In this document: positions 10,140 to 13,269 of the stretch, one piece after another
How positions within the stretch are numbered: the first letter of the stretch is position 1
Layout of the letters: every line of letters starts with the position of its first letter
DNA from: an uncultured virus (IMG/VR IMGVR_UViG_3300037067_013691)
Lineage: Duplodnaviria; Heunggongvirae; Uroviricota; Caudoviricetes
Virus record (IMG/VR): IMGVR_UViG_3300037067_013691
Length of the DNA stretch: 20,000 nucleotides
Strand: one strand, 5' to 3'
The notes under the pieces: model-generated
The model's database searches: none
Told to the model about the DNA's origin: nothing
What the model saw: only the letters and a program-made list of their open reading frames with translations
Program-made: the position numbers and the translations under genes

Positions 10140-10168
10140 CTTTATTATCCCTACATTTATTTTATAGT

Positions 10169-10201
10169 GGGGGTAGTTCCCTTTTATTGAGAACTACCCC
10201 C
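10169..10201 (-). terminator. Strong 11-bp hairpin downstream of the intron-split gene (stabiliser or leaky terminator)
   Basis: GGGGGTAGTTC (10169-10179) / GAACTACCCCC (10191-10201); no U-tract on the minus strand. Confidence 0.6.
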
Positions 10202-10217
10202 TTGACTTAAACTAAAC

Positions 10218-10914
10218 TTAAGTCAAACCCTGAGCAGCTTTGGCGATCAGGATAAATAGAAGGATTATAATTGCTAAAGCAACTACGATACCAACTATTT
10301 CGCATACCAAGGTCTCTTCGGTTGTAGACCAACCAGTGGTATTCTCGCAAAGAGAAGTGGCAATTCCCCTGACAACCTGAAATGAAATCATGCCGATTAC
10401 GCCACATACGATTATCTGTTACGATATTACTGTCAATATCGGCTAAATCATTTCTGTTTAGCTCTTTATGTTTCCATAAAGCTCGGACTATATCATTACC
10501 CTTAATGGGTAGAAAGCCCATAGTCTCTACACATTTATCAGACTTATCTGAATTTAGCTCGGTATTAGCATGGCATTCAGCTTTAGCTTTCACCGAATTC
10601 GCTTTCTGCACCTTACCAATTACTCGATAAGGGGGCTGGCTTTTGTCAACCATCATCAGCATTACGCAATCTGTTACCACATATCCATTTTGATATGTGA
10701 CTAACTTATTTCTAGTTAGTTCACTATGTTTCCATAGTGTTCCGAGCACACCTTCATCCAATTTGGATGCCTCGTATCTGCTCTGTACGCATTTATCAAC
10801 TTGCGTTGAATTTAGTTCGGGATTCCCATGCCCAAAAGGTTTAGGGTCAACCGAGTTAGCGAGGTGCATCTGCCCAGTTACCTGAACAGAGGGCCTAATG
10901 ACCTGTCCAATCAT
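10218..10914 (-). CDS. Spliced 72-aa two-helix membrane protein, putative major virion protein; exons 10914-10901, 10666-10649, 10404-10218
   Basis: The joined exons (219 nt) read MIGQVVMLMMVGVIGMISFQVVRGIATSLCENTTGWSTTEETLVCEIVGIVVALAIIILLFILIAKAAQGLT*. Junctions were predicted from P1/P10 pairings. The last 3' splice site is the least certain. Confidence 0.75.
10405..10648 (-). ncRNA. Group I self-splicing intron 2 (~244 nt, no ORF)
   Basis: P1 GGU|UGAC-AAAA-GCCAGCC with U.G wobble; P2 CCUUAUCGA-GUAA-UUGGUAAGG; P3 AGAAAGC/GCUUUCU; P4 UUCGGU/ACCGAG; P7 GAGACUA/UAGUCC; P8 ACCC/GGGU; P9 CUUUAUG-GAAA-CAUAAAG; P9.1 and P9.2 hairpins; P10 UGGC/GCCA. Confidence 0.9.
10667..10900 (-). ncRNA. Group I self-splicing intron 1 (234 nt, no ORF)
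   Basis: P1 GGU|C-AUUA-GGCC; P2 UCUGUUCAG-GUAA-CUGGGCAGA; P3 CCUCG/CGAGG; P6a UCAAC-GCAA-GUUGA; P7 CAGAGCA/UGCUCG; P8 CAUCC/GGAUG; P9 CACUAUG-GAAA-CAUAGUG; P9.2 CACAUAUC/GAUAUGUG; ends GUAACAGAUUG; P10 UAAUG/CAUUA. Confidence 0.88.
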
Positions 10915-10961
10915 GTTATTATATTCCTAAGAATCCTACCGATTCGTGCAAACGCAAACAT
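10911..10961 (-). CDS. 16-aa leader ORF (MFAFARIGRILRNIIT) coupled to the intron-split gene
   Basis: Strong SD AAAAGGAGG 9 nt before the ATG at 10961; its TGA overlaps the ATG at 10914 (ATGA). Confidence 0.5.
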   Translation of the reverse strand: MFAFARIGRILRNIIT

Positions 10962-11133
10962 TTAAGTTTGCCTCCTTTTAAGTTAATACCTGTACGATTT
11001 AAACGATAATTTCTTCTCATTTCCACAAATAGATAACAGGATAGGCACAAATAAATAAATTGAATTAATGCCTAGGCTTGCGGAAACTGTTTTTGACAAT
11101 TAATAAATTGTACTAAGAAGAAATAAATCTCGT

Positions 11134-11305: not shown

Positions 11306-11334
11306 ATGTTATCATGTATTTTGCAGGTTGTCAA
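11306..11334 (-). promoter_or_regulatory. Sigma70-type promoter of the structural operon
   Basis: TTGACA-17 bp-(TGa)TAACAT. The -35 overlaps the endonuclease stop codon, and an 18-bp perfect palindrome (11294-11311) covers the -10/+1 region. Confidence 0.7.
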
Positions 11335-12389
11335 GTAGTAATGTTTTTGAAATTTAATGGATAATGGAGCATCTCATTTTCATACATCTCATTGTTAATA
11401 GGATTCAATCTATTCGTATATTCTCTCAATTTATCTATATTAGTCATCTTAAATAATAAAGCCACGAGGGGTTTGGTGATATATTTAAACTTATCACAAT
11501 TCCTTTTAAAAGTAATTGTATTCTCGTTAACTATTCCCAAACCTTCTTCCCTTACATTAATTATAAATATTCCCTTACCTTTAAAATGTTGCACCTTCTC
11601 CCTATCTTTATCTTCTTTGCCATTATGCCACCTACCCCCATCTATCTCTATACCGACATTAATACAAGGAATATATAGGTCACACTCTACTTTATCTATT
11701 TTTATTCTATGCTGAATATCAGGAAAATAATGATATAACTCACAAAAAGCAAATATTTCTAACCTAGATGTTTGATTATTACATTTTGGGCAACCATATC
11801 CTGCAACCCTATTCCACACAGTACATAAATATTCATGCCCATTTACACATTTCCACCAAACTTTACGGTTACTACCACTAGATATATTATATATAGTTAA
11901 TGGATAATTCTTTCCTACTATCCATTGACTTGCTAAATTGGGGTATTTTGATGCCAACGAATTACTATCATCTACTTTCTTCCCATCACAATAAGGACAC
12001 CCTTGCCTATTCTTACCAACCCTACTACTAATCCTTGCCAGATAACTATGTCCTTCCTCACATTTCCAACTCACTGTCTTAAAACTTCCTCGTGTTACCA
12101 TATTAGGCTTTAGTTTATCATTCTCCTCATAATCCCATTCCTTACATAATTCAGGTTCACAAGATAACAATGAATTAGTATCACTAACTTTCCTATTCTT
12201 ACAATAAGGGCATCCAGAAGCTCTTAATTTAGTTCTACTATCAATCCTTGCATCCCAAATATGCCCATTATTACATATCCACTCTGCACTCTTATTAGAA
12301 TTAGTCATTACCTCATCAAACAATTTCTCGTTCTTTGGACTCCACTGACTACGCAATTCTGGAAAATTATCTCTAAGTAATCCCTTCAT
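11331..12389 (-). CDS. Free-standing putative homing endonuclease: three treble-clef zinc-ribbon repeats plus a Vsr/DUF559-like nuclease domain
   Basis: Three W.C..GH.[WY]...R....CP.C repeats (DUF4379-like); C-terminal SRLE..ECDLYIP..GIEIDGGRWH..DREK (EDxHD-type catalytic motif). Confidence 0.8.
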   Translation of the reverse strand: MKGLLRDNFPELRSQWSPKNEKLFDEVMTNSNKSAEWICNNGHIWDARIDSRTKLRASGCPYCKNRKVSDTNSLLSCEPELCKEWDYEENDKLKPNMVTRGSFKTVSWKCEEGHSYLARISSRVGKNRQGCPYCDGKKVDDSNSLASKYPNLASQWIVGKNYPLTIYNISSGSNRKVWWKCVNGHEYLCTVWNRVAGYGCPKCNNQTSRLEIFAFCELYHYFPDIQHRIKIDKVECDLYIPCINVGIEIDGGRWHNGKEDKDREKVQHFKGKGIFIINVREEGLGIVNENTITFKRNCDKFKYITKPLVALLFKMTNIDKLREYTNRLNPINNEMYENEMLHYPLNFKNITT

Positions 12390-12480: not shown

Positions 12481-13269
12481 CTATAGGCTACGCCAGTTAA
12501 CTGACCCCACTATATCCCAAATTCTTGCATCAACAGAAGAGTTCAATTGTATACATACCAAGAGGTCTATTGTTGAATTGGCAGATATCTGAATTTCACC
12601 ACTTCCTGCACCATTCAGGTGAGTAGGGATTAAGACAACACTACTGGTAGTTCCTGTGGCAGAGAAATCAGAATCTATATAGTTACCTGCATTTCCCCCA
12701 ATTGTTAGAGCTAAACTTGATCCATCCAATGCAGTACTTAATGGTGACTGTCCAGTATGCAAATTAACATTTATAATTGGCCTTACATATACCCAAGTAC
12801 TAGTAGTATTCTGAACTTTCATAGTGAAGCATACTTGCGAACTTCCCAATACTTGTACATTACTTGGGTTAGTTAACCATGTTACGCCACCACTTTCTGA
12901 CGGTGTAATTCCACCACCACTAGTATTCCAAGGTTTTTCATTCTTCAATGCCGTTATAGCATTATTTACTGCTGTGGAAATAGCAGTATCAACTTCTACT
13001 CTCTTATAATATCCTGATAAATCTGGAGCAGTTCCCTGATTTATCTTAGAAATACGGTCATTGATATCATTTATTGCTGATTTTGATGCCTTACCTTCAT
13101 CTAATGAAGTAATTGAAGATTTTATTTTAGATATCTCAGAGTCCTGCTCTGTATCCTTGGCTGAAACCGTTGCTACCGCAGGTTTAGTGGGTAAACAACC
13201 TAACCCCACTACCCCAATAATCAAAATTGCACACAGAATTAAAATAGACTTTCTCAAAAGTACCTCCAC
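12481..13269 (-). CDS. Putative lipoprotein with a coiled coil and a C-terminal beta domain (start probably TTG at 13257)
   Basis: RK + hydrophobic stretch + GLGC lipobox-like motif; GGAGG precedes the TTG; fibre-like DLSGYYKRVEVD motif. Confidence 0.7.
   Translation of the reverse strand: MEVLLRKSILILCAILIIGVVGLGCLPTKPAVATVSAKDTEQDSEISKIKSSITSLDEGKASKSAINDINDRISKINQGTAPDLSGYYKRVEVDTAISTAVNNAITALKNEKPWNTSGGGITPSESGGVTWLTNPSNVQVLGSSQVCFTMKVQNTTSTWVYVRPIINVNLHTGQSPLSTALDGSSLALTIGGNAGNYIDSDFSATGTTSSVVLIPTHLNGAGSGEIQISANSTIDLLVCIQLNSSVDARIWDIVGSVNWRSL

Follow-up and report, generated by a model that had tools for sequence, protein, structure and literature searches.

Two related group I introns around an 18-nt micro-exon very probably interrupt a 72-codon membrane-protein gene in an uncultivated phage-like element

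In the window analysed in our study, i.e. the whole 20,000-nt stretch of DNA from an uncultured virus (IMG/VR record IMGVR_UViG_3300037067_013691), sequence comparisons indicate that a membrane-protein gene of 72 codons (219 nt), carried by an uncultivated phage-like element, is very probably interrupted by two group I introns, designated A and B. The gene occupies 697 nt of the minus strand (10914-10218), of which 478 nt are intron, in agreement with the estimate of about 480 in 700 nt given in a preliminary description of this DNA. According to the model that we propose with high confidence, the 219-nt gene would carry two related ORF-less members of a mobile intron family with a stop-free frame. 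The GGU at the end of each upstream exon would pair with the internal guide of the following intron through a U.G wobble, each intron would fold into helices P1 to P9.2 with the P3/P7 pseudoknot and end in G, and after transcription each would excise itself by the usual two transesterifications, leaving a predicted spliced mRNA for MIGQV-VMLMMV-GVIGMISFQ..., a protein of 72 aa with two transmembrane segments (TM). Since the family appears to keep one frame without stops, normally the one entered from the upstream exon, a ribosome starting on unspliced RNA would run through the introns and would not terminate inside them. The features involved are listed in Table 1.

Table 1. Predicted features of the interrupted gene and its surroundings, with positions in the window
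Feature	Position	Strand	Description
Lipoprotein-like gene	12481..13269	-	262 aa; signal peptide with lipobox-like LGC
Endonuclease-like gene	11331..12389	-	352 aa, three DUF4379 treble-clef zinc fingers; free-standing, homing-endonuclease-like
Upstream ORF	10911..10961	-	16 codons, MFAFARIGRILRNIIT; ATG at 10961
Read-through frame	10207..10914	-	235 codons, without a stop in either unspliced intron; exon 3 read in another frame
Exon 1	10901..10914	-	14 nt, AUGAUUGGACAGGU; M I G Q, then bases 1 and 2 of the Val5 codon
Intron A	10667..10900	-	234 nt, ORF-less group I intron; terminal G at 10667
Micro-exon	10649..10666	-	18 nt, CGUAAUGCUGAUGAUGGU; third base of the Val5 codon, V M L M M, then bases 1 and 2 of the Val11 codon
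Intron B	10405..10648	-	244 nt, ORF-less group I intron; terminal G at 10405
Exon 3	10218..10404	-	187 nt, stop codon included; third base of the Val11 codon, then residues 12-72
Hairpin	10170..10206	-	11-bp G+C-rich stem directly 3' of the gene; no U-run on the gene's strand

In regard to the exon structure, uninterrupted proteins of 72 aa make up 19 of the 25 database homologues, with starts identical to that of the predicted spliced product, and they match the two-TM protein and the micro-exon that had been proposed from the sequence alone. The start MI.QV[VI]ML... is present in all 21 full-length homologues, and one of them, P0002, begins MIGQVVMLMMVGVIGMISFQVV, thereby equalling the predicted product at both junctions; exon 3, which encodes the remainder of TM1, a loop with the pattern Cys-x14-Cys and TM2, is 96% identical to P0002. 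The loop is conserved among the homologues, TM1 is partly invariant across them, and all three exons are intact in the window. Homologues, intron-less alleles and DNA contigs agree on the junctions CAGGT/CGTAATG and ATGGT/TGGCGTA, exactly as first noted, and the intron-less relatives whose existence would support them were found at nine loci. Two other 3' ends had been mentioned as possible. Use of GUAACAG/AU for both introns would give the product MIGQVLRNADDG..., which no homologue has, and an end of intron B at 10409 is rejected because the frame would shift; only 10667 and 10405 fit the homologues, and the alternative ends are therefore unsupported.

The two tandem introns were recovered by profile as well as by structure. 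An nhmmer profile of eight homologous introns from other loci, with the window excluded, matches the window exactly twice, at intron A (10895-10669, E 2.6e-47) and at intron B (10642-10414, E 9e-58), so that the tandem ORF-less arrangement on the minus strand, as originally described, is borne out by profile matches and by the covariation presented below. Comparison with the Rfam covariance model gave a divided result: intron B reaches 78.8 bits against RF00028 (gathering score 50, E 7.4e-19), whereas intron A stays at 18.8 bits, below the gathering score of 50 and in the wrong register (E 0.036, local search of 1 kb). Among 19 related loci, scores above the gathering score were obtained only in L005, L013 and L014.

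In intron A, P1 is formed by 10903-10900 with 10895-10892, where GGU/C pairs with GGCC. It is followed by P2 (10889-10882 with 10877-10870, closed by a GUAA loop), P3 (10865-10859 with 10775-10769), P4 (10855-10850 with 10821-10816), P5 and P5a, P6 (10809-10805 with 10800-10796), P7 (10783-10778 with 10749-10744), P8, and P9 (10739-10733 with 10728-10722, GAAA loop), after which come P9.1 and P9.2. When exon 1 and intron A are folded together, the minimum free energy structure (z -4.3) contains P1, P2 and P4-P9.2. Intron B is built likewise, with P1 formed by GGU/UG and CAGCC, P2 at 10631-10624 with 10619-10612, P3 at 10607-10601 with 10517-10511, P4 at 10597-10592 with 10563-10558, P6 at 10551-10547 with 10542-10538, P7 at 10525-10520 with 10491-10486, P8, P9 at 10481-10475 with 10470-10464, and then P9.1 and P9.2. 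The wobble 5' site after GGU is thus found for both introns, the U in each case pairing with a G of the internal guide. The P10 pairing, also part of the preliminary description, stands for intron B with 4 bp (UGGC:GCCA), while in intron A the 6 bp are obtained by eye and only with one G bulged (CGUAAUG:CAUUAG).

Furthermore, covariation was assessed over ten helices in ten introns, giving 540 cells; P9.2 was not counted, since the members are not aligned in register at this helix. Paired bases fill 93.3% of the cells, and 39 of 55 pairs are compensatory, i.e. changed on both sides. None of 500 shuffles was as good, and slid controls had 29-40% of cells paired. The P3/P7 pseudoknot, with compensatory changes at 5/7 pairs of P3 and 4/6 pairs of P7, and eight other helices are backed in this way, including the P3/P7 pairings first seen in the window. 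A terminal G is found in 9/10 introns of the family. The exception is intron B of L005, where ending in G and keeping the reading frame are incompatible, so that not every family member would be cleanly spliceable.

The distribution of the introns among alleles suggests that they are, in all likelihood, a mobile family with related members at several sites of one gene. The 19 metagenome loci comprise nine intron-less alleles, three with B only, two with A only, one with B and C, and four with B and D. Precise absence of intron A, or of intron B, is documented by DNA contigs of other runs: in runs X3 and X5, 10666-10900 is absent with one other letter in its place, and in runs X5 and X6 the same is seen for 10404-10648. 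The runs that contain DNA of the element are groundwater and landfill metagenomes, and no RNA run was found for 10150-11000. Four intron sites in the 219-nt gene, each after GGU, are verified in DNA. The alleles examined at the DNA level show all combinations from none to two introns, and read-through ORFs of relatives (P0028, P0029, P0031-P0033) suggest combinations of three and up to four. The pair A and B, together with an invariant micro-exon, recurs in six other read-through ORFs (P0030, P0034-P0038), whose translated introns are only 48-58% identical, which points to long co-existence under constraint; in the read-through frame the micro-exon reads CVMLMMV, invariant in all seven aligned ORFs. 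No relatives were found in IMG/VR by scans with the 57-aa ORF of exon 3, the alignment of the 72-aa protein or the read-through alignment, and the segment 9600-12500 was without a blastn match among 50,697 phage records.

It is quite improbable that one or both introns are splicing-dead relics, leaving either a pseudogene or a gene from which only the 57-aa ORF starting at ATG 10391, in the same frame as exon 3, is made. Such decay would agree with the low Rfam score of intron A, with its weakened P4, where U.C and C.A occupy two of six pairs, and with the rule-breaking 3' junction of L005. On the other hand, intron A has three private changes at otherwise conserved columns, within the 0-4 of eight of the nine other introns (the outlier, L016_D, has 12), the exons are all intact with exon 3 nearly identical to that of P0002, the combination of A and B with its micro-exon is repeated in relatives, and the 57-aa form would be devoid of TM1.

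The frame that stays open through both introns requires separate consideration. One frame is without stops in 9/10 introns, while the other two hold 4-17 stops; shuffling of the variable positions, which leads to about 3-4 stops per intron, gave P 0.006-0.031 per intron for such a frame, in a sample of ten introns from related genomes, so that the cases are not fully independent. The open frame is that of the upstream exon in 8/10 introns. Exceptions are intron B of L015, with five stops in the exon frame, and intron D, whose open frame is not that of the spliced exons. In the alignment, length differences before P9.2 are all multiples of 3 except at the 5' end of L015_B, and all seven distinct outgroup introns with the same P4-P6 core have 1-4 stops in the homologous frame.

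An alternative account of such an open frame, namely that the 235 codons are a real gene for a repeat protein whose two repeats of about 80 aa merely resemble intron cores, is hardly credible. Similar ORFs of 145-343 aa do recur in protein databases (17 matches, one of them named a hypothetical protein at the source), and public annotation calls the frame itself a protein (P0027, 180 aa, 99% identical). Conservation of the read-through protein had been named as evidence that would speak against the introns, but these ORFs show no codon-position bias: substitutions between the ten intron units fall at 1303/1064/1202 over the three codon positions, with no third-position excess, a flat profile that rules out protein-coding selection on this frame. 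The ORFs are therefore best regarded as translated intron cores and not as a protein family. In addition, the conserved 'peptide' motifs coincide with P3-P7, the helices covary, exon 3 would be read outside the frame conserved by the 25 homologues, and in five of six aligned relatives the read-through stops some 20 codons inside exon 3, in the sixth, P0038, even before that.

A different reading, possible but tentative, is that this is an intron lineage adapted to translation, in which selection keeps the genomic frame open from the start codon across tandem introns, and which reached its sites by reverse splicing. Insertions and deletions would then come in threes, intron A would be 3n long when B follows, and D would be open in the frame of a ribosome that has read through unspliced B. 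The first ribosome, coupled to RNA polymerase, could cross 0.5-1 kb of ribozyme without terminating, and the introns could fold in succession behind it and then splice. Were this true, the accepted rule, protection of bacterial group I introns by an early in-frame stop, would be inverted. The presence of one family at at least four sites with GGU alone in common is as integration by reverse splicing, guided by an internal guide of 3-5 nt, predicts. In the full-text literature searched, with most subscription journals outside it, no description of stop-free ORF-less group I introns was found.

As to the expression of the gene, the strong Shine-Dalgarno (SD) sequence noticed upstream does exist (AAAGGAGG, ~10977-10970), but it lies 9 nt before the ATG of the upstream ORF and serves this 16-codon ORF and not the 72-aa gene, whose own SD is a weak AGGAA. 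The TGA of the upstream ORF overlaps the ATG of the gene as ATGA, and within the ORF a small hairpin (GAAUC GGUAG GAUUC) immediately precedes the weak SD; most related loci, whether intron-bearing or intron-less, have a similar short ORF upstream that ends in ATGA and contains a hairpin. The downstream hairpin is likewise real, but without a U-tail on the strand of the gene. In L016-L019 there is a comparable hairpin, with an A-rich run after it.

Further upstream, the endonuclease-like gene (Pfam PF14311, E 1.2e-47; phrog_559 'HNH endonuclease', E 3.8e-23) forms an insertion that separates the lipoprotein-like from the intron-bearing gene. Among arrangements with enough upstream sequence, it is present in three intron-bearing and one intron-less, and absent from two intron-bearing and three intron-less, a mixture that contradicts a clean association with intron presence. 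The 262-aa lipoprotein-like protein has a helical region, a G/S linker and a beta-rich C-terminal part, with an invariant Cys in alignment A4; its AF2 model, from a seven-sequence alignment, is of low confidence (mean pLDDT 55, pTM 0.41), and no usable match was found in the protein atlas.

The preliminary description had taken the 72-aa protein for the major coat or matrix protein, i.e. a virion membrane protein, so that virion assembly would need two splicing events. We consider this unlikely. Such a part could be played by a small two-TM protein whose Cys-x14-Cys loop is conserved, and the gene is tandemly duplicated in three of the nine intron-less loci (L001, L007, L010), has its own leader ORF and 3' hairpin, and stands upstream of very large proteins, which carry fn3/DUF2341 domains in the relative L020; related contigs hold phage-type genes (Sipho_Gp157/Mu Gam-like, YopX and a weak match to protein-primed-type PolB). 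Against it, no capsid, portal, terminase or tail family was detected, either in the window or over 38 kb from a relative, and none of the neighbours (lipoprotein-like, endonuclease-like, large proteins) is annotated as capsid or tail. The 72-aa protein matches no Pfam or PHROG family, holins and coat proteins included, the best hits of alignment A1 (16 members) being DUF1490 in Pfam (E 0.01, 6/16) and 'pilin' among PHROGs (E 0.073, 1/16), neither significant, and tblastn of the 1297-aa and 1077-aa neighbours against the 50,697 phage records returned nothing. The observations are also compatible with a holin, a pilin-like protein or a superinfection-exclusion protein, and the upstream neighbour is lipoprotein-like.

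Group I introns in phage genes are already known, even several per gene with a short exon between them, as in orf142 of phage Twort. New in the present case are the intron density, with 478 nt of intron in a 219-nt gene, and the occurrence of one family at four sites that have GGU alone in common, with natural presence/absence alleles; four intron sites in one small phage gene have no precedent in the full-text literature searched, which leaves most subscription journals outside. The 18-nt exon is shorter than the natural examples of 23 nt and 34 nt in the cited papers. Such a family offers a compact natural system for testing the spread of group I introns by reverse splicing, for which direct evidence is lacking according to one review. 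Stop avoidance, if confirmed, would raise a testable question on ribosome transit, Rho-type polarity and ribozyme folding. In practical terms, a real 72-aa gene is missed by gene callers and public annotation, while its introns are read as 'hypothetical proteins' of 145-343 aa.

Several known systems share some of these properties. In collaborative (trans) homing, as outlined in PMC3984707, a free-standing endonuclease is encoded beside an ORF-less intron. The endonuclease-like gene upstream of the intron-bearing gene (PHROG 'HNH endonuclease', 'homing endonuclease') recalls this arrangement, from which the window differs in that endonuclease and introns are not cleanly associated across related arrangements. 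As with td, nrdB and sunY of phage T4, the introns lie in a phage protein gene where translation and splicing would interact. According to two reviews, most bacterial coding-gene introns have an in-frame stop close behind the 5' splice site, by which ribosomes are kept off the core (PMC3073962, PMC3984707). Unlike this rule, nine of the ten members of the present family are without any stop in that frame.

In their size of about 230-250 nt, the GNRA loop of L2 and the GAAA of L9 (by eye), the introns of the window also resemble subgroup IC3, the compact tRNA-type introns such as those of Azoarcus tRNA-Ile and cyanobacterial tRNA-Leu. Typical of IC3 are a compact core, a tetraloop in L2 and a P5 receptor to which the GAAA of L9 docks. 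The P5 internal loop of the family (CCUAAA...CAUGG) is presumably comparable to the 11-nt tetraloop receptor, which it resembles, and an intron within a tRNA gene array of the viral contig L031 fits the family's invariant P4-P6 core pattern too. The window introns differ from IC3 by their location in a protein-coding gene and by the extra hairpins P9.1 and P9.2. Helices P7.1 and P7.2, placed between P7 and P3', are on the other hand typical of subgroup IA. The 5' strand of P7 (alignment columns 133-138) and P3' (columns 141-147) are 2 nt apart in all ten introns, leaving no room for these helices, so that the family lacks what would place it in IA2, the subgroup usual in phages such as Twort and T4.

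A very short exon between two group I introns is likewise known from the 23S rRNA gene of Coxiella burnetii, where it measures 34 nt (PMC10136302). The closest precedent, however, is Twort orf142, which, according to PMC10136302 and PMC11878797, contains several related ORF-less group I introns of subgroup IA2, with a 23-nt exon between two similar ones. As in that gene, several related ORF-less introns would share a phage gene outside DNA metabolism with a very short exon between them, and exon skipping would be mechanistically possible in the window gene too, given that GGU closes both 5' exons and that loss of the 18-nt exon keeps the frame; the joint 10901/10404 would then encode 66 aa. 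What sets the window gene apart from Twort is the shorter exon (18 nt vs 23 nt), together with a host gene of only 219 nt, a family present at four or more sites, and introns that are stop-free in the exon frame.

The small gene is covered by two overlapping reading frames, one open from its ATG and a second whose C-terminal part encodes a hydrophobic helix (see the table). With the ORF of the second frame as query, 25 of 26 candidate proteins were accepted at E <= 0.01, mostly of 72 aa (19 proteins), the others being of 73-74 aa (two) or 57-66 aa (four), and the full-length homologues start with MI.QV[VI]ML[LM]. The N-terminus of one homologue, P0002 (MIGQVVMLMMVGVIGMISFQVVRG...), is exactly that of the predicted product after removal of introns A and B as delimited in the preliminary description. 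The match to homologues predicts exon 1 and, between the introns and followed by exon 3, the micro-exon CGUAAUGCUGAUGAUGGU. Each junction is slightly ambiguous in position because the intron and the exon begin with some of the same bases, and the rules for group I introns decide between the options, the original choice being the only one with a U at the end of either 5' exon and a G at the end of either intron; the alternative 3' sites proposed at the same time are fitted by no homologue. Because each 5' exon has GGU at its end and the micro-exon spans six codons, skipping it is predicted to give an in-frame product of 66 aa.

Features of the small gene and its surroundings in the window
Feature	Coordinates	Strand	Length	Remark
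Exon 1	10914-10901	minus	14 nt	
Intron A	10900-10667	minus		
Micro-exon	10666-10649	minus	18 nt	
Intron B	10648-10405	minus		
Exon 3	10404-10218	minus		
Open frame	10914-10207	minus	235 codons	starts with ATG
Second-frame ORF	10391-10218	minus	57 codons	
RF00028 match	10659-10464			78.8 bits (gathering score 50), E 7.4e-19
Second Rfam match	10974-10722			18.8 bits, E 0.036
Family profile match	10642-10414			E 9e-58
Family profile match	10895-10669			E 2.6e-47
Leader ORF	10911-10961	minus	16 codons	
Endonuclease-like gene	11331-12389	minus	352 aa	three DUF4379 treble-clef zinc fingers
Lipoprotein-like gene			262 aa	upstream; invariant Cys in LGC lipobox

Covariance models recognised the two introns unequally: intron B exceeds the gathering score of RF00028, but intron A gave only a weak, mis-registered match in a sensitive local Rfam search. 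An nhmmer profile built from eight introns of other loci, with the window excluded, matched the window at two places only. The structure drawn on the ten-intron alignment A3 comprises P2, P3, P4, P5, P5a, P6, P7, P8, P9 and P9.1, P3 and P7 forming a pseudoknot; standard pairs occupy 93.3% of 540 cells, 39 of the 55 pairs show changes on both sides, none of 500 shuffles attains any of five pairing measures, and sliding the partners by 1-3 columns lowers pairing to 29-40%. P1 reads GGU|C:GGCC in intron A and GGU|UG:CAGCC in intron B, with a U.G wobble at the splice site in both. Minimum free energy folding of intron A together with exon 1 recovered P1, P2 and P4-P9.2 unaided (z -4.3), and P4 of this intron holds two mismatches. 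Judged by its sequence, intron A displays no sign of decay, since its private changes at columns uniform in the nine others number only three, within the 0-4 of eight of those nine; the ninth, intron D of locus L016, has 12 and is without P2.

L2 is a GNRA loop and L9 is GAAA, while the P5 internal loop reads CCUAAA...CAUGG, which we take to resemble the 11-nt tetraloop receptor. With only 2 nt between P7 and P3', the introns lack the P7.1/P7.2 helices that IA2 introns, the usual phage type, possess. The pattern of invariant P4-P6 positions led to nine loci on viral contigs, of which seven are distinct and one lies within a tRNA gene array; this provides a lead that the family may be closer to compact tRNA-type introns.

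Scanning metagenome contigs with the 72-aa alignment, followed by mapping of the exons, yielded 19 related loci. Nine are intron-less (L001-L004, L006-L010), three have an intron only at the second site of the window, B (L005, L013, L014), and two only at the first, A (L011, L012). L015 has B and a third site, C, which follows Val21, and four loci, L016-L019, have B and a fourth, D, which interrupts Trp36; over the region read these four are nearly identical, L018 being cut at its 5' end. The window combines A and B. GGU precedes all four sites (ACAGGU|, GAUGGU|, UCAGGU|, CUGGGU|), and the 3' exons share nothing at their starts. In a comparison of the window with contigs from four public DNA runs, some from X5 and X6 skip 10404-10648, some from X3 and X5 skip 10666-10900, in either case with one other letter instead, and one contig has A and lacks B. 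These are DNA alleles, not spliced RNA, and they fix the junctions to the base. Uninterrupted homologues, alleles, family profile and covarying helices together bear out two group I introns and the predicted 72-aa product.

Several loci show further peculiarities. Three intron-less loci carry two tandem gene copies (L001 4702-4920 and 5001-5216; L007 1230-1445 and 1598 onwards; L010 322-537 and about 690 onwards). In intron B of L005 (4765-5001) a terminal G is incompatible with the reading frame: the frame demands ...AAAA|UGGUGUC, and ending at the G two bases later would shift it; this intron has either a non-G 3' end or a shifted 5' site, or is a defective allele. Intron C of L015 is a mosaic with A-type-like 5' and 3' ends and a P6 like the B type of L015/L016. 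Within 10449-10765, contigs of X5/X6 fuse pieces of introns A and B, by a skip of 10482-10764 with 28 other letters between or by a return from 10702 to 10449; they represent either recombinant or mosaic members, or else further introns, of the family.

The 235-codon frame is resembled by 17 database proteins of 145-343 aa, one of which (P0027) is 99% identical and is called by its source a hypothetical protein from a Patescibacteria-group MAG. Six (P0030, P0034-P0038) have the A+B layout of the window with an invariant micro-exon, and, from protein sequence alone, P0028 spans four intron units and P0029 and P0031-P0033 span three. Such read-through homologues, whose conservation in place of the 72-aa product the preliminary description had named as evidence against its reading, do recur, but as a protein family they are ruled out by mismatches spread evenly over codon positions among the ten introns (1303/1064/1202); their conserved 'motifs' are the ribozyme core. 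Protein sequences P0039-P0042 and P0043 point to the intron family being read through in other host genes as well, one with three units separated by very short exon pieces (..FLIISTIVG.., ..NKTDHRFCP..) and another in which one unit lies at the end of an unrelated protein, roughly 130 aa long.

In nine of the ten introns one frame lacks any stop codon, the other two frames having 4-17 stops. In eight of the ten, the open frame is that of the upstream exon; the exceptions are intron B of L015, with five stops in the exon frame, and intron D of L016, where the open frame is the one a ribosome would have after unspliced B, with one stop near the 3' end. Shuffling the 117-141 variable positions per intron, with the 106 conserved columns fixed, gave an expectation of 2.7-4.4 stops per intron, so that zero stops has P 0.006-0.031 for each. 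Length differences before P9.2 are all multiples of three (3, 6 or 9 nt in the P1 loop, an 18-nt loss of P2 in L016 intron D, 3 or 6 nt more in P6, 3 nt in P8), the 5' end of intron B in L015 being the exception. The P4-P6 core alone does not explain this, as each of seven outgroup introns sharing it contains 1-4 stops in the corresponding frame. In two reviews, most bacterial group I introns are described as having an in-frame stop just past the 5' splice site, keeping ribosomes out of the core (PMC3073962, PMC3984707), opposite to the frames found here. The first, polymerase-coupled ribosome would be spared termination within 0.5-1 kb of intron; that the stop-free frame serves to keep this ribosome from terminating in the introns is our preferred reading, though a tentative one that we hold to be less likely than not; the sample is small and its genomes are related.

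In regard to function, no Pfam or PHROG family matches the small gene, whose predicted product has two hydrophobic helices, a short C-terminal tail and a loop in which the cysteines C30 and C45 are invariant. The strong SD previously ascribed to it belongs to the leader ORF, whose stop overlaps the ATG of the gene, and the downstream hairpin is indeed present 3' of the gene but has no U-run on its strand. Together with the lack of any capsid, portal or terminase gene in the window or in a 38.6-kb relative contig, this leaves a major coat/matrix protein possible but unsupported, and in our view unlikely.

Leader ORFs that contain a small covarying hairpin occur in most relatives, with and without introns, including L001, L004, L005, L006/L007, L008/L009 and L013; clear cases have 14-20 codons, their own strong SD and an ATGA end that overlaps the ATG of the 72-aa gene. 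The stems vary in step (GAAUC/GAUUC, GAGUC/GACUC, GAAGC/GCUUC), with a loop beginning GGU, directly upstream of the weak SD of the small gene, and look like a translational-coupling or operator element.

The endonuclease-like gene, whose PHROG matches are to families with the annotations 'HNH endonuclease' and 'homing endonuclease', is a free-standing insertion between the lipoprotein-like gene (its AF2 model is too poor for use) and the small gene. It occupies the same spot in the window, L011, L016-L019 and the intron-less L008/L009, and is absent from L005, L012, L004, L001 and L020, so its link to the introns is not clean. Downstream lie small ORFs and proteins of 1297, 590, 144 and >1077 aa, the first and last without tblastn matches in phage records. 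The 38.6-kb contig, from a MAG titled Clostridiales, carries an intron-less relative, Sipho_Gp157/Mu Gam-like and YopX genes and a weak protein-primed-type PolB match. The disagreement between the two bin labels, together with the gene content, suggests a phage-like element. The contigs behind P0027 and L020, near-identical or related, were assigned to different MAGs, one Patescibacteria-group and one Clostridiales; probably at least one assignment is mistaken, which is not surprising in a phage-like contig. In L020 (3-536 and 610-1782, minus strand), an ORF of 390 aa matches DNA_pol_B_2 (protein-primed type) weakly and is followed 73 nt later by a second open ORF on that strand; the two may be pieces of one polymerase gene, split or frameshifted.

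The preliminary description was right on the introns and the predicted product and unsupported on function, and two tandem introns in a small gene are confirmed as an observation at the sequence level. The nearest known case is orf142 of phage Twort. Compared with it, the introns described here are of another structural type, the exon between them is only 18 nt, the host gene, just 219 nt long, has at least four insertion sites, and the frames are stop-free.
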